This document shows positions 3,860 through 64,000 of a stretch of 64,000 nt of DNA, piece after piece (the stretch's first letter is position 1; each line of letters starts with the position of its first letter). A program made the position numbers and the translations under genes. Origin of the DNA: a virus; IMG/VR virus record IMGVR_UViG_3300032516_000004, positions 96,001 to 160,000 of that record. The stretch is one strand, 5' to 3'. The notes under the pieces are model-generated. The model worked only from the letters and a program-made list of their open reading frames with translations, searched no databases and was not told where the DNA came from.

Positions 3860-8278
<4,419 letters not shown>

Positions 8279-8288
8279 TAGGTAAAAT

Positions 8289-11162
8289 ATGGCAGATCCT
8301 AATATCTTTGGTAGTGTTATACTTGATTCAGTATCAACTGATCCAAGTTCCTCGGAAGATGGGGAGATGTGGTATAATTCTAGTCAGAGTAGATTTAAGA
8401 GAAAACGTGGTGGTGCCATTAAAGAATCTGCCGACACCGATGATGTTACTGATAGAGCAGTTGCTGTGTCGGGTAATGATACTACACCAGGCAGCATAGA
8501 AGCTAAAGTTGTTGCTGGCACAGCTGTTTCATTAGCTACTTTAAATGAAGGTGCAGACGAGACAAGGCAGATATCTGTTTCATTTGGTGCTACAGGATCT
8601 ACAGCATGTGTAGGTAATGATTCGCGGTTGAGTGATAATCGAACAGACAGCAACGCCATCCATAAGGCAACTTCTGGTGAGATTGCGGGTATGACTGAGA
8701 AAGGCACGCCAGTCGGTGCTGACCTGATTGTCATTGAGGATAGTGCGGCCAGTAACGCCAAGAAAAAGGTTCAGATTAGTAATTTGCCGAGTAGTAGCTC
8801 CGATACGAACGCAATCCATAAAAATGCCGCCAACGAAATCAGTACCATTACTGAGAAGACCACAATGGCAGATGCCGATCTGTTCATTCTTGAGGACAGC
8901 GCGGCAAGTGGGGTTAAGAAAAAAGTCCAGTTTGCCAATCTCAAGGGTACAGCATCGGCGGCGGGCGCTAAGGACAACATACAGTTCCGGGGGAGTCAAG
9001 CAGGGTCATTCGCGTCCGATGACTTATTCAAATGGGATGCTGTTGGCCATTACCTGATTGTCGGACCTACAAACCCAAGTCTAAACGGCATTCTGGAGTA
9101 TCTCGAAAAGAACCTGAATACCTACATCCAGGTTTGCCTCACGAACGTGAGTGGTGCGCCTCAGGCATCTACTGACGTTTGTGTTGGCAATGATCTCAGC
9201 ACAGATTTGAATTATTATGGTGATTTTGGGATCAATAGCTCGGGTAATACAGATCCGGCATATCCTCTCCTGTTGACCAACGACGTCTATCTCTACTGCA
9301 TGGATGGCCAGTTTGTCCTGGGCACGGGAACAGCCAACAAGGACGTGGTATTCCATAGTGGTGGTTTTGCGCTTGCCAACGAGCGACTACGAATCACTGG
9401 TGCTGGTAGCGTTGATATTAGTAGTGCATTCTCACTGAGGGGCGCTATCACTCCAACGTCTATTGGAGCCAACCAAAACAACTACGATCCTACAGGGCTG
9501 TCGACCGCCACATTCTTGCGCCTATCATCCAGCGGCTCATACAACATCACGGGATTGGCGGGTGGTACATCGGGTCGTGTCGTTATTATTCACAACATTG
9601 GGGCCAACAACCTAACCTTGAAGGATGAGAGCGCATCTAGCACGGCAGCAAATAGATTTGCCCTACCAAGCACCGATGATTTTGTGCTTTGGCCTGATCA
9701 GACCGTGATTCTCCACTATGATGCCACAACTACAAGATGGCGTGTCATCGGGTGTTCTCGCACACCCTATGGAAATCAGGCGAACACGATTTGCCAAGGC
9801 AATGATTCTCGATTGTCTGATTCTCGTGCCCCCACAGGTACGGCAAGCGGTGATCTGGCTGATACATACCCTAGTCCTACGGTTGCAAAAGCCAGCAAGT
9901 CATTTGCTTTGACCGGTGGCATTGCTCCTGCTTCCATCGGTGCAGACCAAAACGATTACAGCCCAACAGGCTTGGCCGATGCTACTTCGATTCGTCTGAC
10001 TGCCAGTGGTGCATACAACATCACGGGACTTGCCGGTGGTGTTGGTGGCAGGATGATGATCCTGCACAACGCCAGTGCGTTCAAACTCACGATTGTTAAT
10101 GAAAGTTCTGCCAGTACAGCAGCCAACAGATTCCTGCACACGTCAGCACAGAATCTCGTGCTGAACCCAGACCAGAACTGTGAGTTACAGTATTGTGGCG
10201 TATGCTCTCGCTGGCGAGTTACTGGAGCTTCGCGTGCCCCTTATGGCACAACTGTGGATTCAATTTGCCAGGGTAACGATTCCAGACTTTCAGATGCTCG
10301 TACACCAACTAGCCACGCATCGTCACATAACGCGGGTGGTGGTGATGCACTTGCCATTGACGCAGCGGCAGGTACGGGTTCTCTACGAACGCTCGGTACT
10401 GCGGCAACAGCGGCGTGCGCTGGTAATGATTCGCGGTTGAGCGACTCTCGTACACCTACCAGCCATGCGTCGTCGCATAATGCGGGTGGCGGTGATGCGC
10501 TTGCTATTGACGCGGCGGCAGGCACAGGTTCTCTCAGAACACTTGGTACTGGGGCAACAGCGGCATGTGCTGGTAACGACTCGCGGTTGAGTGATTCTCG
10601 TGCACCCACCAGCCACGCGACCAGTCATAAGAGCGCGGGTGGTGACAGCATCAAATTAGATGAGCTGGCCGCACCTACAGACGTTACAACACTCAATGCC
10701 ACCACAGGACAGCACGGTCTCTTGCCGAAGCTCGGTGGTGGGACAGCCAACTTCCTGCGAGCAGATGGTGCATGGGCTGCACCTTCGAGCAGTGGTGTTG
10801 TCCCCAGTGAAGCTACGGCAACCGGCACAACGACTACGACCTCGGCTACAGACGTGCAGATGGACAGCATGACCCTGACGCCAGGTGCTGGGACGTATCT
10901 GGTGATGTTCAGTACATCGGCCGCACATTCAGACGCGGCGGGCGCACTTTACGTGTCGATCTATGCCAACAGCGTACAAGTCGCGGCATCAGAGCGACGT
11001 AGAACAGCCGCCGATTTGAAACAGATCGGCATGGTGGTGCCGCTAGCAACCCAAGCGGTCGTGACGGTTTCAGCCGCACAAGTCATTGAAGTAAAATGGC
11101 GCACAAGCGTGGCAACCGCCACCGCATACCAACGGACCATGACGTTGCTCAAGATTGGGTAG
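8289..11162 (+). CDS. Tail-fibre/virion structural protein with internal repeated modules
   Basis: Duplicated ~115-aa module (SIGA.QN.Y.PTGL..AT..RL..SG.YNITGLAGG...RWRV.G.SR.PYG), duplicated NAIHK...EDSAAS..KKKVQ module, five GNDSRLSD motifs; Ala/Ser/Thr/Gly rich. Confidence 0.75.
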   Translation: MADPNIFGSVILDSVSTDPSSSEDGEMWYNSSQSRFKRKRGGAIKESADTDDVTDRAVAVSGNDTTPGSIEAKVVAGTAVSLATLNEGADETRQISVSFGATGSTACVGNDSRLSDNRTDSNAIHKATSGEIAGMTEKGTPVGADLIVIEDSAASNAKKKVQISNLPSSSSDTNAIHKNAANEISTITEKTTMADADLFILEDSAASGVKKKVQFANLKGTASAAGAKDNIQFRGSQAGSFASDDLFKWDAVGHYLIVGPTNPSLNGILEYLEKNLNTYIQVCLTNVSGAPQASTDVCVGNDLSTDLNYYGDFGINSSGNTDPAYPLLLTNDVYLYCMDGQFVLGTGTANKDVVFHSGGFALANERLRITGAGSVDISSAFSLRGAITPTSIGANQNNYDPTGLSTATFLRLSSSGSYNITGLAGGTSGRVVIIHNIGANNLTLKDESASSTAANRFALPSTDDFVLWPDQTVILHYDATTTRWRVIGCSRTPYGNQANTICQGNDSRLSDSRAPTGTASGDLADTYPSPTVAKASKSFALTGGIAPASIGADQNDYSPTGLADATSIRLTASGAYNITGLAGGVGGRMMILHNASAFKLTIVNESSASTAANRFLHTSAQNLVLNPDQNCELQYCGVCSRWRVTGASRAPYGTTVDSICQGNDSRLSDARTPTSHASSHNAGGGDALAIDAAAGTGSLRTLGTAATAACAGNDSRLSDSRTPTSHASSHNAGGGDALAIDAAAGTGSLRTLGTGATAACAGNDSRLSDSRAPTSHATSHKSAGGDSIKLDELAAPTDVTTLNATTGQHGLLPKLGGGTANFLRADGAWAAPSSSGVVPSEATATGTTTTTSATDVQMDSMTLTPGAGTYLVMFSTSAAHSDAAGALYVSIYANSVQVAASERRRTAADLKQIGMVVPLATQAVVTVSAAQVIEVKWRTSVATATAYQRTMTLLKIG
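10272..10620 (+). repeat. 150-nt (50-aa) coding tandem repeat, 2 full copies plus a partial third
   Basis: Units start at 10272, 10422 and 10572 (GNDSRLSD.RTPTSHASSHNAGGGDALAIDAAAGTGSLRTLGT.ATAACA). Confidence 0.9.
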
Positions 11163-57931: not shown

Positions 57932-58567
57932 ATGAGAGGGAGTGCGGTCAACAACACCAAGGTTAATGCTAATCAAAAAATAGTTCCATGTTCTGTATGT
58001 AATGAGCCGGTATTAGTTGGAAAATTTGACAAAAAGGATCAAAAATGTGAAAAGTGTAAGAATATTCCTAAGGGACGAAATACAGCGGTAAGGAAGTTAC
58101 CATCAAAGCCAGTAGTAAAATTACCATCTAAACCAAGTTCATTTGCAGTCGCGCTTGGTGAGCTGGCTGTAAAATTAGGGTTTGAGATTAACGAGAAAAG
58201 GTTATGGAAGAAGAAATATGCTATAGATGGTGGGGGTGTTGCTACCGTACATATTATGATAGATATGGGGCTTTCTGGTCAAGAGCCACGAATTGGGTAT
58301 TTTAGTTTAACGGTACAGCGGGCTGTTGGTATTAATGATAACTTTAGAAAATTTATGCCGCCCGACGCAGCGTCTGATTGTGAACTTTTAGCGTCAGAAC
58401 TGGGCGGGGTAGAAATACAAAAACCACAAATTGGCCAAGAAAAGTGTGATCAGTGTGGTATTTTAACTGATCAATTTGGGGTAAAGGGAAATAAAGTTTT
58501 GTGTATACGAAAAGGTGGATGTTTCAAAAAAGCATTTACTAGTGGGGGAGCGGAATCCGTTGAATAA
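57932..58567 (+). CDS. Hypothetical protein with terminal Zn fingers
   Basis: AAGGAG SD; CSVC..CEKC and CDQC..C..C. Confidence 0.6.
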   Translation: MRGSAVNNTKVNANQKIVPCSVCNEPVLVGKFDKKDQKCEKCKNIPKGRNTAVRKLPSKPVVKLPSKPSSFAVALGELAVKLGFEINEKRLWKKKYAIDGGGVATVHIMIDMGLSGQEPRIGYFSLTVQRAVGINDNFRKFMPPDAASDCELLASELGGVEIQKPQIGQEKCDQCGILTDQFGVKGNKVLCIRKGGCFKKAFTSGGAESVE

Positions 58568-58646: not shown

Positions 58647-61600
58647 ATGTCCGTAATATTTACGTCTGGTGAACCACAAATGTGGTTAAAAACTTGCGGG
58701 TGTCAAAATCCAGCAATTTATTGGAGCAGTGATTTTAATGCCAGAATTTGCGGTAATTGTGGTATGGTAATTATGGAAAAGCAGGGCGAAGAAGTCAAAA
58801 TTGATTTTGTGCACTTGGTTGTTCATACCCACCTAAGTTTTCTGAAGGCAACATGCAAAATTGAGGATTTAATTAATAAAGCCAAAGAATATGGTATGTC
58901 AGCTTTGGCCAAGACAGAATTAGGAAATTTATGTGGCGCACCGTCTTTTGTAAAAGAATGTAAAGAAGCTGGTATTAAACCTATTTTAGGTACCACATTT
59001 AATACAAAAATTGGTGAAATATTTCATCCTATTACTATTATAGCCACTAATCATGCGGGGTATAAGAATTTAGTGCGTCTTAATACGTTAGCATGGCAAA
59101 TTAGGTTTGGTAAGGAACACGGTCCGTCAATACAAATAAATGATATTATTAGTTCAGATGGCTTAATAGCCATTATTGGAGTAGAGCAATCTGGCCTGGG
59201 ATTCGAATCACTTGTTACCATGTTGGCGGGTAAGATACAGCCGACATTAGCAGCTACCTGGTACAACCAACAAGATAATGATAATTTAGCAATATTAAGA
59301 GTGGTGGCTGATAAGCTACATTTACCAGTTGTTGCCACTAATAATGTACGATATGTAAATCAGTCGGATCATGACGCATATAAAATAGCACTTAAAATAG
59401 GACACTACGATTATTTACTTCAAGATCCTGAATATTATTTTAAATCACCTGCTGAGATGGCCCAACTACCATTTGATGAAGAGTGGTATCGAAATACAAT
59501 TCGCATAGCTGATTCGGTACAAGATTATCAGATCATCAACAAGGAATTTATTGTACCAACCTTTAAGGATCAGAACGGTGAGTGGGGAATAGAAGAGTCA
59601 TTTGGAAAATTACAAATAGAAACCTGGAACGGGTTGGCTGCAAAAGGCTTAATTGATAAGCCAGAGTACATTAAGAGACTCGAGTATGAGCTTGACGTAA
59701 TTAAGAGAAAGAAATTTGCTAGTTACTTTCTAATCATTGCTGAGATTGTTGATTATATTAAATCCAGAGGTTGGCTATCTCCTTTTGGCAGGGGATCTTC
59801 TTGCGGAAGTATGATTTGTTATTGTCTTGATATTATAGCCATAGACCCTATTAAGTGGAGCATACCATTTGAACGATTTATTAATGAAGGTCGTATTGAT
59901 TTACCAGACATTGATACCGATATCACACAAGAAGGTCGCGGCGACGTATTAAAACATATTGCTGAAGTACATGGACATGATCGTGTGGCACAGATCGCTA
60001 CTTTTCAGACCATGGGTCTTAAGGCATCGATTGATAATGTAGGTAGAGCATTAGATGTTGCGTTTGTACAAAATAGAGAGCTACGCAATAAAATTCCTGA
60101 AGAGGTCGAAGAAATTGATGATCTATCAGACGATGTGAAGAAGGAACTCAATACAGTTAAGGGGTGGGCTGACAACGCTAAGTCTCTGTCTGGTATAACG
60201 AAGAATTTTGGTGTACACGCTGCTGGTATCGCAATCGCCAATAATCCAATAGGTGATTTGGTGCCACTATTGCCTGAGATTGATGGTGTTCAGGGTGTTC
60301 AATATGATATGAAAGACCTAGAAATACTTGGTCTATTAAAACTTGATATGTTAGGTTTGCGAAATCTTGATGTTATTCAAAATACCTTAGCCATAATTAA
60401 ACAGGTTCATAATGTAGACATTGATGTTCATAATCTTCCGTTAGATGATAATCAAACATATGATATGATATCTACTGGAGATTATGTTTCAGTATTCCAG
60501 CTTGATTCGCCGGGTTACAGGAAATTAGCTCGTCAACTTAAACCAGATAAATACGAACACATCATGGCCTTGAATGCCCTGTTCCGTCCAGGGCCACTTG
60601 GTGGTGGTATGACAGATGAATATGTTGAGAGAAGACATGGACGTAAACCTTCTGAGAGCATGCATCCATGGTTAGATGAAGATTTATCAACAACTTATCA
60701 GCTTATTGTATTCCAGGAGCAACTGTTGGCTTTAGCAAAGAAAATTGCTGGTTTTAATGGTGTTGAAGCAGATAAATTTAGACATGCCGTAGGTAAAAAG
60801 TCACAGGTAGAATTTGATAGGGCCATGTCTAAATTTAAAGACGGCGCTTTGAATAGAGAAGGTCTAATCCCTCCACCTGGATGTGGTAAATCTCTTGAGG
60901 CTTGGGTGGATGATCTTATAAAGAAAATATCCGGTCATGCACGTTACAGTTGGAACCGAGGGCACTGCCTGGATGGAAGCTCGTTAGTGTTAACATGTGG
61001 TCGTGGGTTGGTTCCAATTAAATATATAAATATCGGAGAAGAGGTTTGGTCAATTAGAGAGAAGACTGGAGATATTTTTAGAAATAGAGTTATGAATGTT
61101 ATTAACAATGGTAGGCGCGATACTGTGCGTGTTAGATCCAGCGATGGTAGAGAGCTTGTGACCACATCTAATCATAGGTATTTTACCTCCAAACAACAGT
61201 ATAAACACGCGTCTGAGCTGAACTATACTGATAGCCTGAAGATGCTTGATAAGGGGATTTTTAGAAGACATTTCAACATCTTTGTGACATCTATTACAAA
61301 CCGTAACAAGGTTCCATTCGTCGTCAGCCTTTACAATTTCATATGGTATAATGTGGTGAAGGCTAAGTCTTTTTTTGGTTCCACAAAAGACGCACATACA
61401 CCAATCTCGTTCAAGAAGTTTATATCTAAGAGATCTGCTAATTTTCCTAGTTTTTCGTATTTTAATACCAGATCGTCCATCTCTGAAGAACTTATAAATA
61501 CTTCTGGGATTAATAAAGATCTTTCTTTCAGCCAGTCTCCTAGAGATTGCAATTTGGCTTTTGTACCCCATACTTCTTATTTCAAGGATTGCCTTTCTTA

Positions 61601-63266
61601 CTTTTGGCGTAATTGCATAAACGCGGTTACCACTCAGACCACACTCTTTGATAAATCTGGAGAGGGCAGCGGGGCTAGCTTTAAATGGAAGTTCCTCAAG
61701 TATATTCTTGCTGCCAAATCCCTGTGCGTGCAGCTTCCTAATCAACTTTTCATGTTTATAATAGGGGTTCCGTTTTCTATTGCATATGATGCAGAGGCTA
61801 TTGTTTTTGGCCGTTCTGTGAACCGTAATCTTTTTACGGCAGTCACCGCATCTGATACTCTTTGTATTCTTGGACCTGTTAAGACATCTGGGGCAATGAT
61901 AGATAGGGATATTATTAGGAGTGACGAAGATATTGGAACATTTAACACAGACTACTTCAATCTCTTTCATATAAAACCTCTGGAACAAAAGGATATTACC
62001 GACGTTACTTTTAATTCTATCACACCAGAATCAAATCGTGAAGTCTGGGATCTTACCATGGAACAAGACCCAAACTTTATAGCTAATGGTTTTGTAGTTC
62101 ATAATTCAGCGGGTTACGGAATGATTACGTATGTTACTGCATATCTTGAGACCCACTATCCGGCTGAGTATTATACTACTCTTTTAGATTCAACTGATAA
62201 AGCTGACAAGATCACTACATTAATGCGTGGTATTATGCATAAAAATTATGCGGTAGTTCCACCCGATGTAAATGAGTCTGGTGTAGGGTATGCCACTAAC
62301 AATAATGTTATTTACATGGGGCTTGGTTCGGTAAGAAATGTTGGCAATTCAGCGGGTGAGATTGTTGAAGAACGTGATCGAAATGGTAAGTTTGGGTCAT
62401 TTATTGAGTTTTGTCAACGTTTGTCGTCTGTTAATAAAACAGCAAAAATAAATTTGATAAAAGCCGGTGCATTTAAGTGGGATAAATCACTATGTGATCG
62501 AGATAAAGCCGATAATATTGACGTTATTAATAAGGCCGTTAGACGTAAGAACAAAAAATTTGATGGCACTAAAGTAGCGCCCATTGAGATAGCCACTGAA
62601 TGTTACATTACGGGTATCGATTTCACCGATATTCAACGGCAGCAGAATGAACGAGAAGTACTAAATTCATTTATTACTGGTCATCCAGCGGCAGTTTATC
62701 AACGTCTTGCCCCGTATTTGGAAAGAGCAGACTCTCATGTTGTGTGCCCGTCCATGATTAAGGACTGTCAAGTTGGAGAAACGGTATTGTTGGTTGGCAT
62801 GGTTGACACAATAAATAAGAAATTCATTACTAAAGAAGGAAGGAATCAGGGTAATCCTTATTTAGTGGTACATATTAGTGATGAACGCGATTCAACAATG
62901 ACTAATATATGGTATCCAATGTGTAATGATATGGAAAAAATATTAGTACCTGGACAAGTTGGTATGTTTGAGTGTATAACTAGGGCAGATAAATTTAGAG
63001 AAGGTAGAATATCGTTGTCAGTTAAACATGCTGTTATGTTAACTCATGGTTTACCAATACAAGGAATTTTTGTAAATAACGGTCATGCTCCAGAGGCCGT
63101 GTTAGCTAAAATAGGTGGCATGCTAAATCAGATTATCGATGTTGGTAATAAAAAATATGCCTCTATACGAGGTAGAATAACTGTAAATCCAGATGTTCTT
63201 GAAAATGCAGCTCACGAATTTGATGGTGTTAAATTTTTAATCTGTATGGAGGCGTCAGATGGCTAA
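58647..63266 (+). CDS. dnaE: DNA polymerase III alpha subunit (family C), intein-containing
   Basis: PHP domain (FVHLVVHT), RGSSCGS..Y.L.I, PDIDTD, HAAG, LKLD.LGLRNL, VFQLDS, RPGP, YQEQ-like FQEQ, YP.EY, PPDVN.S, C-terminal OB fold. Confidence 0.95.
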   Translation: MSVIFTSGEPQMWLKTCGCQNPAIYWSSDFNARICGNCGMVIMEKQGEEVKIDFVHLVVHTHLSFLKATCKIEDLINKAKEYGMSALAKTELGNLCGAPSFVKECKEAGIKPILGTTFNTKIGEIFHPITIIATNHAGYKNLVRLNTLAWQIRFGKEHGPSIQINDIISSDGLIAIIGVEQSGLGFESLVTMLAGKIQPTLAATWYNQQDNDNLAILRVVADKLHLPVVATNNVRYVNQSDHDAYKIALKIGHYDYLLQDPEYYFKSPAEMAQLPFDEEWYRNTIRIADSVQDYQIINKEFIVPTFKDQNGEWGIEESFGKLQIETWNGLAAKGLIDKPEYIKRLEYELDVIKRKKFASYFLIIAEIVDYIKSRGWLSPFGRGSSCGSMICYCLDIIAIDPIKWSIPFERFINEGRIDLPDIDTDITQEGRGDVLKHIAEVHGHDRVAQIATFQTMGLKASIDNVGRALDVAFVQNRELRNKIPEEVEEIDDLSDDVKKELNTVKGWADNAKSLSGITKNFGVHAAGIAIANNPIGDLVPLLPEIDGVQGVQYDMKDLEILGLLKLDMLGLRNLDVIQNTLAIIKQVHNVDIDVHNLPLDDNQTYDMISTGDYVSVFQLDSPGYRKLARQLKPDKYEHIMALNALFRPGPLGGGMTDEYVERRHGRKPSESMHPWLDEDLSTTYQLIVFQEQLLALAKKIAGFNGVEADKFRHAVGKKSQVEFDRAMSKFKDGALNREGLIPPPGCGKSLEAWVDDLIKKISGHARYSWNRGHCLDGSSLVLTCGRGLVPIKYINIGEEVWSIREKTGDIFRNRVMNVINNGRRDTVRVRSSDGRELVTTSNHRYFTSKQQYKHASELNYTDSLKMLDKGIFRRHFNIFVTSITNRNKVPFVVSLYNFIWYNVVKAKSFFGSTKDAHTPISFKKFISKRSANFPSFSYFNTRSSISEELINTSGINKDLSFSQSPRDCNLAFVPHTSYFKDCLSYFWRNCINAVTTQTTLFDKSGEGSGASFKWKFLKYILAAKSLCVQLPNQLFMFIIGVPFSIAYDAEAIVFGRSVNRNLFTAVTASDTLCILGPVKTSGAMIDRDIIRSDEDIGTFNTDYFNLFHIKPLEQKDITDVTFNSITPESNREVWDLTMEQDPNFIANGFVVHNSAGYGMITYVTAYLETHYPAEYYTTLLDSTDKADKITTLMRGIMHKNYAVVPPDVNESGVGYATNNNVIYMGLGSVRNVGNSAGEIVEERDRNGKFGSFIEFCQRLSSVNKTAKINLIKAGAFKWDKSLCDRDKADNIDVINKAVRRKNKKFDGTKVAPIEIATECYITGIDFTDIQRQQNEREVLNSFITGHPAAVYQRLAPYLERADSHVVCPSMIKDCQVGETVLLVGMVDTINKKFITKEGRNQGNPYLVVHISDERDSTMTNIWYPMCNDMEKILVPGQVGMFECITRADKFREGRISLSVKHAVMLTHGLPIQGIFVNNGHAPEAVLAKIGGMLNQIIDVGNKKYASIRGRITVNPDVLENAAHEFDGVKFLICMEASDG
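61050..61970 (-). CDS. HNH endonuclease encoded antisense inside the DnaE intein
   Basis: N-terminal CxxC fingers (CVKC, CPRC, CGDC, CIIC); RKISRSLRYKLLERDWCMCVFCG...LSLHHIIPY...EWNLVTVCNRCH; GAGG SD 6 nt before ATG 61970. Confidence 0.88.
   Translation of the reverse strand: MKEIEVVCVKCSNIFVTPNNIPIYHCPRCLNRSKNTKSIRCGDCRKKITVHRTAKNNSLCIICNRKRNPYYKHEKLIRKLHAQGFGSKNILEELPFKASPAALSRFIKECGLSGNRVYAITPKVRKAILEIRSMGYKSQIAISRRLAERKIFINPRSIYKFFRDGRSGIKIRKTRKISRSLRYKLLERDWCMCVFCGTKKRLSLHHIIPYEIVKADDEWNLVTVCNRCHKDVEMSSKNPLIKHLQAISIVQLRRVFILLFGGKIPMIRCGHKLSTIAGSNTHSIAPTIVNNIHNSISKNISSLLSN
62014..62042 (-). promoter_or_regulatory. Candidate promoter for the antisense HNH gene
   Basis: Minus strand TTCACG-17-TAGAAT with extended TG, about 43 nt upstream of ATG 61970. 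Confidence 0.45.
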
Positions 63267-63565: not shown

Positions 63566-64000
63566 ATGATTAAATGTAATAGATGTGGTATTATGAAATT
63601 ACGACGCGAACTTGTAAATAGCAAACAGCGATCAAAGGGTTATAGACCCTTATGTAAACAATGTTATAATAAACATAGACGATTAGTTTGGCGACGATAT
63701 GCTGGTTTGGTTAGGAAAGCTATTTTGAAGTATTTACAAAAACACCCGTGTGTTGATTGTGGTGAGACTAATCCAATTGCCTTAGAATTTCATCATTTGA
63801 AGAATAAAAAATATAATATAGCTCCATTAATTGGTAAAGGATGTAAACTTTCACGTATTATGAGTGAAATTGCTAAGTGTGATGTAGTTTGTGCTAACTG
63901 TCACAAGAAAAGAACTGCCAAACAACAAAATTGGTATAATATGAAAACTAAGAAGTGCTGTAATTGTAAAGAAATTAAATCAGTAAAGCTATTTAATAAG
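63566..64000 (+). CDS. HNH endonuclease, 3'-truncated by the window edge (not in the ORF track)
   Basis: MIKCNRCG...HPCVDCGETNPIALEFHHL...EIAKCDVVCANCHKKRT; frame open to the window end. Confidence 0.85.
   Translation, partial: MIKCNRCGIMKLRRELVNSKQRSKGYRPLCKQCYNKHRRLVWRRYAGLVRKAILKYLQKHPCVDCGETNPIALEFHHLKNKKYNIAPLIGKGCKLSRIMSEIAKCDVVCANCHKKRTAKQQNWYNMKTKKCCNCKEIKSVKLFNK

Follow-up and report, generated by a model that had tools for sequence, protein, structure and literature searches.

Can an intein carry its homing endonuclease as a separate gene on the opposite DNA strand, and what would keep two reading frames open across the same bases? This question is raised by a 64,000-nucleotide stretch of an uncultured phage genome (positions 96,001 to 160,000 of IMG/VR record IMGVR_UViG_3300032516_000004; hereafter the window), in which dnaE, the gene for the alpha subunit of DNA polymerase III, is interrupted by an in-frame intein, and the strand opposite the intein encodes a protein with zinc ribbons and an HNH nuclease core. 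A first-pass annotation, made from the letters of the window alone, had suggested that a free-standing HNH gene invaded a mini-intein backward and was kept, giving a two-gene mobile element. Considering the conservation of both strands at nine loci, the allele states of the dnaE site, and the trees of the separate parts, we regard it as probable, at roughly three chances in four, that this is a composite selfish element whose two genes occupy the same triplets of opposite strands, with the HNH protein driving homing of the intein and its own gene together.

The dnaE intein and its antisense HNH gene

In the dnaE open reading frame (ORF), Pfam recognized the PHP, DNA_pol3_alpha, DNA_pol3_finger, and HHH_6 domains, together with an Intein_splicing match split across residues 796 to 1153 (Table 1). 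The boundaries of the intein were set by alignment with the intein-less alleles P0012 to P0014, which run without gaps across the junction (the extein of P0012 is 82% identical to that of the window); this places the terminal His-Asn at 62100 to 62105 and Ser+1 of the C-extein at 62106 to 62108. The splicing motifs that the first-pass annotation had described as intact are so by comparison as well, C1, T67, H70, H379, and N380 being invariant across nine homologs (alignment A2); at position +1 the window has Ser, and the relatives have either Ser or Cys. An N-terminal nucleophile, a TxxH in block B, His-Asn followed by Ser+1, and an in-frame insertion for which uninterrupted alleles exist characterize the element as a class 1 intein, and from the conserved catalytic residues and the essential role of dnaE we infer that the 380-residue protein is competent to splice. 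AlphaFold2 (AF2) models, which for all proteins described here were built on shallow alignments of 7 to 9 sequences, gave pLDDT (predicted local distance difference test) values of ∼53 to 76 for residues 1 to 67 of the N-terminal splicing domain and a strand at residues 349 to 365 of the C-terminal one (pLDDT ∼74). Rfam returned no intron or other RNA family at the element.

The insertion point of this intein lineage drifts by 1 to 3 residues among relatives (window positions 60954 to 60968 and 62100 to 62114, compared with L002, L004, L007, and L009). In the window the junction reads H|S, the +1 residue being Ser; L002, L007, L009, and P0007 have (S/A)|C, the +1 residue being Cys, and L004 has N|C three residues earlier; the drift apparently tracks where the extein offers a nucleophile.

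On the minus strand, positions 61050 to 61988 are open, and the product starting from the ATG at 61970 was assigned to the HNH family (Pfam PF01844, 33.0 bits against a cutoff of 21.4). It also matched many PHROG families of HNH endonucleases, along with some of terminase small subunits and RNA ligases, and profile searches against PDB retrieved the HNH domains of IscB (E value, 4.5e-6) and of a group II intron maturase. These results agree with the earlier reading of 61970 to 61050 as a zinc finger plus HNH endonuclease. The AF2 model (mean pLDDT, 68) shows two pairs of zinc-ribbon hairpins together with helical domains and a core of the beta-beta-alpha type, in which strands at 202 to 206 and 221 to 225 are followed by a helix and in which C193, C196, H205, H206, C225, C228, and H229 are invariant (alignment A1). 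The helical region between the ribbons and the core is probably DNA binding and helix-turn-helix-like, judging from the model. Profile and motif place the protein within the HNH family, and nicking or cleavage activity is predicted on that basis. A paralog search of the record (177,941 bp) found a single copy of the gene.

The frames of dnaE and the HNH gene fall on identical triplets, as had been noted at first reading (58647 and 61968 are both divisible by 3), and GC and AT skews are inverted over 61150 to 61900, as expected from a gene on the opposite strand. The annotation had further described the gene as fully nested in the intein and had located it in the stretch between the splicing motifs. 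The ORF does lie wholly inside the intein, but it extends beyond the loop: the final 69 codons (61053 to 61259) stand opposite the N-terminal splicing domain.

The sense reading of the region between the splicing domains (61251 to 61991) matched nothing in Pfam or PHROG, so that neither an in-frame HNH domain nor any other family was detected there. Its composition is dominated by Phe (27), Ser (27), and Ile (19) among ∼236 residues, in line with the initial description of a Ser/Phe/Ile-rich loop free of LAGLIDADG or HNH motifs, and pLDDT was 22 to 33 over intein residues 68 to 348 in a model from a shallow alignment. The annotation had allowed that the loop might match a real folded domain; family searches and the model both point away from one.

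TABLE 1 Features of the dnaE intein, the antisense HNH gene, and candidate expression signals in the window
Feature	Position	Strand	Basis
dnaE (DNA polymerase III alpha) precursor ORF, 1539 aa, intein inside	58647..63266	+	ORF list, Pfam
Intein, 380 aa, Cys1 to terminal His-Asn	60966..62105	+	Pfam Intein_splicing, E value 5.6e-17
N-terminal splicing domain, residues ∼1-100, including TxxH of block B	60966..61265	+	Retained in mini-inteins P0006 and P0008
Sense-frame loop of intein, residues ∼101-335, open frame	61266..61970	+	No family match, no predicted fold
C-terminal splicing domain, residues ∼336-380, blocks F/G, His-Asn end	61971..62105	+	Invariant columns 360-380 of alignment A2
Antisense HNH endonuclease gene, 306 codons plus TGA stop (61050-61052), ATG at 61968-61970	61050..61970	-	Pfam, PHROG, PDB profile
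Two zinc ribbons (four CxxC pairs), HNH residues 1-70	61761..61970	-	Eight invariant Cys (alignment A1), AF2 beta-hairpins
Helical region, HNH residues 71-180	61431..61760	-	Conserved blocks; helices with pLDDT 70-85
HNH catalytic core, residues 181-237 (CxxC, HH, N/D, CxxCH)	61260..61430	-	Pfam match at 199-237
Two-way coding overlap: 69-codon HNH C-terminal tail antisense to intein residues 30-98	61053..61259	-	Codon avoidance
Possible Shine-Dalgarno core GAGG, 6 nt from HNH ATG	61977..61980	-	Read from sequence; weak
Sigma-70-like promoter candidate TTCACG, 17-nt spacer, TAGAAT, extended TG	62014..62042	-	Consensus scan, 9/12 matches

The arrangement recurs at nine loci

A search with the DnaE intein region yielded six further full-length relatives with 35 to 44% identity (L001 to L005 and L007); since it was reached by way of an unbroken DnaE protein, this set may be biased toward open sense frames. 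An IMG/VR search with the HNH alignment, which makes no such preselection, added L009 and L010, and in these too no stop interrupts dnaE opposite the HNH gene (in L009, dnaE runs past the end of the locus). All nine loci, namely, the window and eight further metagenomic phage loci, have both frames open, the antisense ORF being intact, in register with the dnaE triplets, and 303 to 314 codons long when counted from the ATG preceding the first CxxC. The nine HNH proteins share 42 to 59% identity in a nearly gapless alignment, with the eight zinc-ribbon cysteines, the HH pair, and the CxxCH invariant. Moreover, Logan, ENA, JGI, and IMG/VR assemblies made independently contain the layout, and several loci occur in more than one sample.

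Other searches delimited this group. With the HNH protein as the query, a word-indexed search of ∼5.8 billion non-redundant protein sequences gave no match, and an exhaustive HMMER search gave matches at the level of the HNH domain with no close relative, the best being P0121 at 30% identity. The paucity of protein-database matches is explained by nested antisense ORFs not being called as genes; since gene callers miss such genes, homing endonucleases in phage inteins are probably undercounted. A metagenome scan recovered only L004 and L007 again, and a scan of genome collections recovered nothing. IMG/VR scans with P0121, P0150, and alignment A3 returned only ordinary free-standing nucleases, and when shorter, split pieces of this intein were sought, the sole match was an unrelated RecA intein. 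The distant matches L011, L026, and L045 were set aside as free-standing HNH genes that are not nested; most have packaging or structural genes as neighbors. The nearest DnaE of a cultured phage is ∼32% identical.

Selection maintains both reading frames

Over the central 245 codons, amino acid identity was 46% for the antisense reading and 26% for the sense reading, and nucleotide differences at antisense codon positions 1, 2, and 3 were 0.42, 0.35, and 0.63. The extein, used as a control, gave the mirror image: 46% identity in the sense reading and 25% in the antisense one, with differences of 0.44, 0.32, and 0.65 at sense positions 1, 2, and 3. The HNH protein is thus conserved about as strongly as an essential polymerase, and the sense loop only as a by-product. 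Whether the antisense ORF is under purifying selection had been left by the annotation as a point for comparison, and these substitution patterns indicate that it is.

Because the two genes share triplets, stop codons in the sense frame correspond to TTA, CTA, and TCA codons of the HNH gene, and these are missing from it. The HNH gene of the window contains none, versus 4.5% of codons in the other ORFs of the window (P ∼5e-9 for zero such codons, given the Leu and Ser codon usage of dnaE itself), and none occurs in the central 233 to 239 codons of any of the nine HNH genes. In the dnaE exteins of the same phages, TTA and CTA make up 14 to 72% of Leu codons and TCA makes up 8 to 34% of Ser codons. 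Per-locus conditional P values ranged from 9e-12 to 2.5e-2, with a summed log10 P of −54.6 over the nine loci. Where the sense frame is free to close, as in the split-intein loci that hold the nearest called relatives of this HNH gene (described below), the HNH genes contain 12 (L075) and 15 (L077) such codons. Free-standing phage HNH ORFs behave alike: 5 of 48 lack these codons, all five with a GC content of at least 0.67, while at a GC content below 0.45 none of 25 lacks them (mean, 6 per 100 codons). Third codon positions of the nine HNH genes are near saturation, so that their lasting freedom from TTA, CTA, and TCA reflects ongoing selection, through the loss of phages with a truncated DnaE.

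The content of the sense loop bears no comparable mark. Its 26% identity is at the level that the extein gives when read, meaninglessly, in antisense, variability in the loop region peaks at sense codon position 1, its hydropathy shows no selection when compared with random synonymous recodings of the HNH gene (mean z, 0.18), and mini-inteins without the loop exist at the same dnaE site. The loop is best explained, on this comparative evidence, as a passenger linker whose sequence is dictated by the opposite strand and whose sole requirement is the lack of a stop codon. Comparative evidence for selection on two strands is unusually clean in this system, with the split-intein relatives acting as a natural control.

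The nuclease tail overlaps the N-terminal splicing domain

The overlap between the HNH tail and the N-terminal splicing domain passes through block B. In 7 of 12 inteins examined (6 of the 9 full-length ones), the HNH stop lies opposite a conserved TCA codon for Ser at intein residue 29. Intein residues 1 to 29 contain 1 to 5 TTA, CTA, or TCA codons at each locus, versus none in residues 30 to 96 at any of the nine loci. This avoidance of antisense stops has a summed log10 P of −14.4, to which the distal and proximal halves of the tail contribute about −7 each. In the mini-intein of L073, from which the HNH gene has been lost, codons of this type are found at residues 72 and 74. The tail model contains helices at HNH residues 240 to 261 and 285 to 304, and the split-intein relatives likewise conserve the proximal tail, which in them overlaps the 3′ end of the N-terminal intein half (IntN) by 23 to 32 codons. 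The substitution pattern in the overlap is dominated by the sense strand. We read these ∼200 nucleotides as coding both ways, the intein setting the sequence and its codon choice being apparently restricted so that the nuclease tail stays open. With the overlap reaching the splicing domain, intein and nuclease would constrain each other's evolution.

A 155-residue intein belonging to P0007 (L072:1501-5679) has lost the HNH gene, and its residues 30 to 96 are still free of TTA, CTA, and TCA (P ∼0.002), which suggests a very recent deletion. The extein of P0007 is ∼80 residues longer than those of its relatives.

Allele states and trees point to a mobile unit

At the same dnaE site, other phages carry mini-inteins without the loop (P0006 and P0008), partial remnants (P0007 and P0011), or empty alleles, and in the mini-inteins the HNH gene has been lost along with the loop. 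In the extein tree (21 sequences), the three allele states are fully interleaved, and the nine full inteins need nine state changes; P0012, which has no intein, is there the sister (100*) of the window allele. Trees of the HNH protein and of the splicing domains match one another: both group the window with L002 and L007 with L010, and both reject the extein grouping of the window with L004 (approximately unbiased test, P = 0.0045 and 0.0069). Trees that agree mutually and conflict with that of the extein indicate that the intein and its antisense HNH gene travel as one unit, with a history unlike that of the host gene. The element thus looks mobile as a unit, and the pattern is what homing predicts, consistent with the two-gene mobile element suggested in the first-pass annotation.

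Split-intein relatives

P0121, the best HMMER match, lies between two opposite-strand ORFs on a 2.4-kb contig (L075, 1-2362). One of these ORFs carries the end of a dnaE part followed by ∼98 residues of an intein N-domain and a stop codon; the other begins with a C-domain of 40 residues and runs into the C-extein, and the insertion site is that of L007 and L009. A second and different split case, around the distant HNH homolog P0134, was recovered from two samples (L077, 1-1321, and L078, 1-1145), with the C-terminal half (IntC) in another frame in L077 and with Shine-Dalgarno-like sequences before both IntC and the HNH gene at its loci. In L075 and L077, the HNH gene is antisense to the gene halves. 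These contigs are short and cover only fragments of dnaE. We consider L075 and L077/L078 to be candidate natural split DnaE inteins (IntN, ∼98 residues; IntC, 38 to 40 residues), and such pairs could serve as candidate parts for trans-splicing. Two host ORFs, the hallmark of a fractured gene, are present only at these loci; in the window, dnaE is a single ORF.

Relation to known systems

The first-pass annotation knew of no described intein with this layout, a claim that does not hold, because a published study of actinophage inteins reports endonuclease ORFs of the LAGLIDADG and VSR-like types in antisense, a sense loop without structure, and signs that invasion is continuing (Gosselin, Arsenault, and Gogarten, bioRxiv 10.1101/2025.01.02.630785). 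Earlier cases of antisense LAGLIDADG ORFs, in Synechocystis DnaX and in a SpoVR-like protein of Chloroflexus, are cited in the same preprint (Gorbalenya 1998; Gogarten 2002). Those authors proposed that a free-standing endonuclease gene invaded the intein, and they list HNH only as an in-frame nuclease type (bioRxiv 10.1101/2025.01.02.630785). As in their inteins, the nuclease of the window is a separate opposite-strand ORF between the splicing blocks, the intein frame is open, the sense loop lacks a recognizable fold, and the distribution suggests continuing transfer. Unlike the LAGLIDADG and VSR-like (EDxHD) enzymes of that report, the protein here is an HNH nuclease with two zinc ribbons, in dnaE of uncultured ∼180-kb phages. 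Since the nuclease is of the HNH type, we file the element as a variant of a known architecture; on comparative sequence evidence it is a well-supported HNH-type form of a rare layout. What is new is the HNH family in the antisense-intein architecture, within a dnaE gene from a clade of uncultured phages, together with the constraint where nuclease tail and splicing domain overlap and the connection to fractured relatives. A third nuclease family is thereby added to the antisense-endonuclease inteins, and with HNH joining LAGLIDADG and VSR-like enzymes, the layout appears to be a general outcome of endonuclease genes invading inteins.

The naturally split DnaE intein of cyanobacteria, which we take to interrupt the same host protein in the same conserved FNKSH region, differs in that the intein of the window is contiguous. 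In cyanobacteria, the two dnaE halves lie in separate loci, and fractured genes have been described in which split inteins flank a free-standing endonuclease gene, with GIY-YIG and Vsr-like nucleases found and HNH only predicted to fracture genes (Dassa et al. 2009, PMC2677866). The evolutionary model of that study is the same as ours, and the P0121 and P0134 loci show the fractured arrangement. Unlike in those fractured genes, the intein of the window is contiguous, and the HNH gene of the L075 and L077 relatives is antisense.

Two further systems place a nuclease out of frame: the ShiLan domain, a "hidden" HNH insertion in a phage DNA methylase (PMC11855218), and cyanobacterial dnaX inteins with an out-of-frame LAGLIDADG ORF under frame-specific purifying selection (bioRxiv 10.64898/2026.09.14.751524). 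As in both, the nuclease ORF of the window overlaps a stop-free insertion in the host frame. Unlike in both, where the nuclease uses another frame of the same strand (in ShiLan without a splicing domain), the nuclease here lies on the opposite strand, on identical triplets, and in a bona fide intein. Across the antisense and out-of-frame studies compared here, HNH is reported only in frame or in another frame of the same strand. A canonical bifunctional intein with an in-frame HNH domain shares the nuclease family with this element, whereas here HNH stands outside the intein polypeptide.

Proposed mechanism and alternative explanations

Under the composite-element reading, a class 1 intein would interrupt the essential DnaE at a conserved N(K/R)(S/G)H|S motif, be translated within the DnaE precursor, and remove itself by protein splicing. 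An HNH homing endonuclease of the free-standing type would be expressed separately from the minus strand, its 69-residue tail being encoded opposite the N-terminal splicing domain, and would most likely nick or cut the intein-less dnaE of co-infecting relatives, after which repair would copy the whole intein-plus-HNH unit into the empty allele. Zinc ribbons, a helical region, and an HNH core together form an architecture typical of free-standing homing endonucleases. We infer transcription and translation of the antisense gene, the target of the nuclease, and homing itself.

Several observations weigh against this reading. Sampling is sparse, so that gain by homing and precise loss are inseparable, and the closest pair of HNH proteins is 0.87 substitutions per site apart, so that no recent transfer has been caught. 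A GenBank phage DNA search and tblastn with the HNH protein retrieved nothing, and no cultured phage with the element was found. Foldseek matches in PDB are weak, though all are HNH nucleases (best E value, 8e-3), and the models rest on alignments of 7 to 9 sequences. Expression signals are faint: a Shine-Dalgarno core precedes 2 of the 9 HNH starts, versus ∼40% of ordinary ORFs in the same loci, and 6 sigma-70-like sites were counted in the region against 5.8 expected in shuffles, which is chance level. The promoter candidate of Table 1 sits within the C-terminal splicing domain, and neither the promoter scan nor the Shine-Dalgarno survey supports a dedicated HNH expression signal. In addition, phage HNH enzymes also serve other roles.

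This last point leads to the rival that we take most seriously, although we consider it unlikely, namely, that the HNH protein is functional but does not home this intein, the dispensable loop being merely a safe seat for a nuclease that acts in degradation of competitor or host DNA, in marker exclusion, or in a packaging-associated function. Purifying selection reveals that there is a function and not which one, and the PHROG matches to terminase small subunits and RNA ligases, as well as the single copy in the genome, would suit such a role. What speaks for homing instead is that the HNH and splicing domains share one tree in conflict with that of the extein, that intein-bearing and empty alleles interleave, that mini-inteins have lost gene and loop alike, and that the modular architecture is typical of free-standing homing endonucleases. 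The lack of a conserved ribosome-binding site or promoter and the losses seen in mini-inteins could also be taken to mean that the antisense ORF is what remains, decaying and unexpressed, of an endonuclease gene or of an HNH domain that was once in frame and became inverted, with its open frame a by-product. We give this explanation very little weight, because nine lineages with 42 to 59% identity keep an intact ORF of 303 to 314 codons with invariant catalytic and zinc-binding residues, because substitutions follow the same pattern as in the essential extein, and because the sense strand avoids codons that would stop the antisense tail.

It is similarly improbable that the sense loop has a function of its own as a domain, such as regulating splicing, and that the antisense ORF is secondary. 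The strictly open sense frame at all nine loci is as this explanation would have it, but the loop has no family match and a pLDDT of 22 to 33, its identity is no higher than that of the antisense of the extein, its first codon position is the most variable, its hydropathy equals that of random recodings, and mini-inteins do without it. The annotation had also raised inversion misassembly, and this artifact, or removal of the central region at the RNA level, is hardly credible: the same layout was found at nine loci in independent Logan, ENA, JGI, and IMG/VR assemblies, several of them in more than one sample; Rfam reports no intron; and a region bypassed in RNA would need no stop-free sense frame, yet the avoidance of stops is extreme.

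The composite element may have a wider meaning. We tentatively suggest that one homologous element could show every stage of gene breaking at one dnaE site, from the empty allele and the mini-intein, through a contiguous intein whose antisense HNH gene is preserved by selection on two strands (including 69 codons in which the Hint N-domain and the nuclease tail would both be functional), to a fractured dnaE in which the same antisense HNH lies between split-intein halves. If so, the site would be a natural setting in which to test the origin of split inteins and would be the first case of an intein splicing domain and a nuclease physically coupled through antisense coding.

Neighboring genes and minor observations

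A TGGAAYGTTCCA-like palindrome lies ∼18 nt upstream of the HNH ATG in L001, L003, L004, L005, and L009, with a half-site in L007 and L010. It was considered as an operator, but the simpler explanation is that it encodes the conserved sense-frame WN(V/I)P, a motif that it reads on both strands. The palindrome is probably the conserved edge of the C-terminal splicing domain, a regulatory site being less likely.

Other putative nuclease or zinc-ribbon genes flank dnaE. Starting ∼300 nt downstream of it, an ORF at 63566 to 64000 (plus strand), which continues past the end of the window, contains several CxxC pairs and an HH...CxxCH pattern; its Pfam match to DUF7685 is below threshold (24.9 bits against a cutoff of 27), and it looks like a free-standing nuclease of the zinc-ribbon/HNH type. 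Directly upstream of dnaE, positions 57932 to 58567 (plus strand) encode a conserved 211-residue zinc-ribbon protein with no family match, and several relatives have a gene of ∼208 to 235 residues with no Pfam match in the same place. In L003 (1-1600), a 662-residue ThyX product with a faint LAGLIDADG match is encoded beside dnaE, and thyX there probably contains an intein. In L005, an Endonuclease_7 gene (7623-8321) lies immediately downstream of dnaE.

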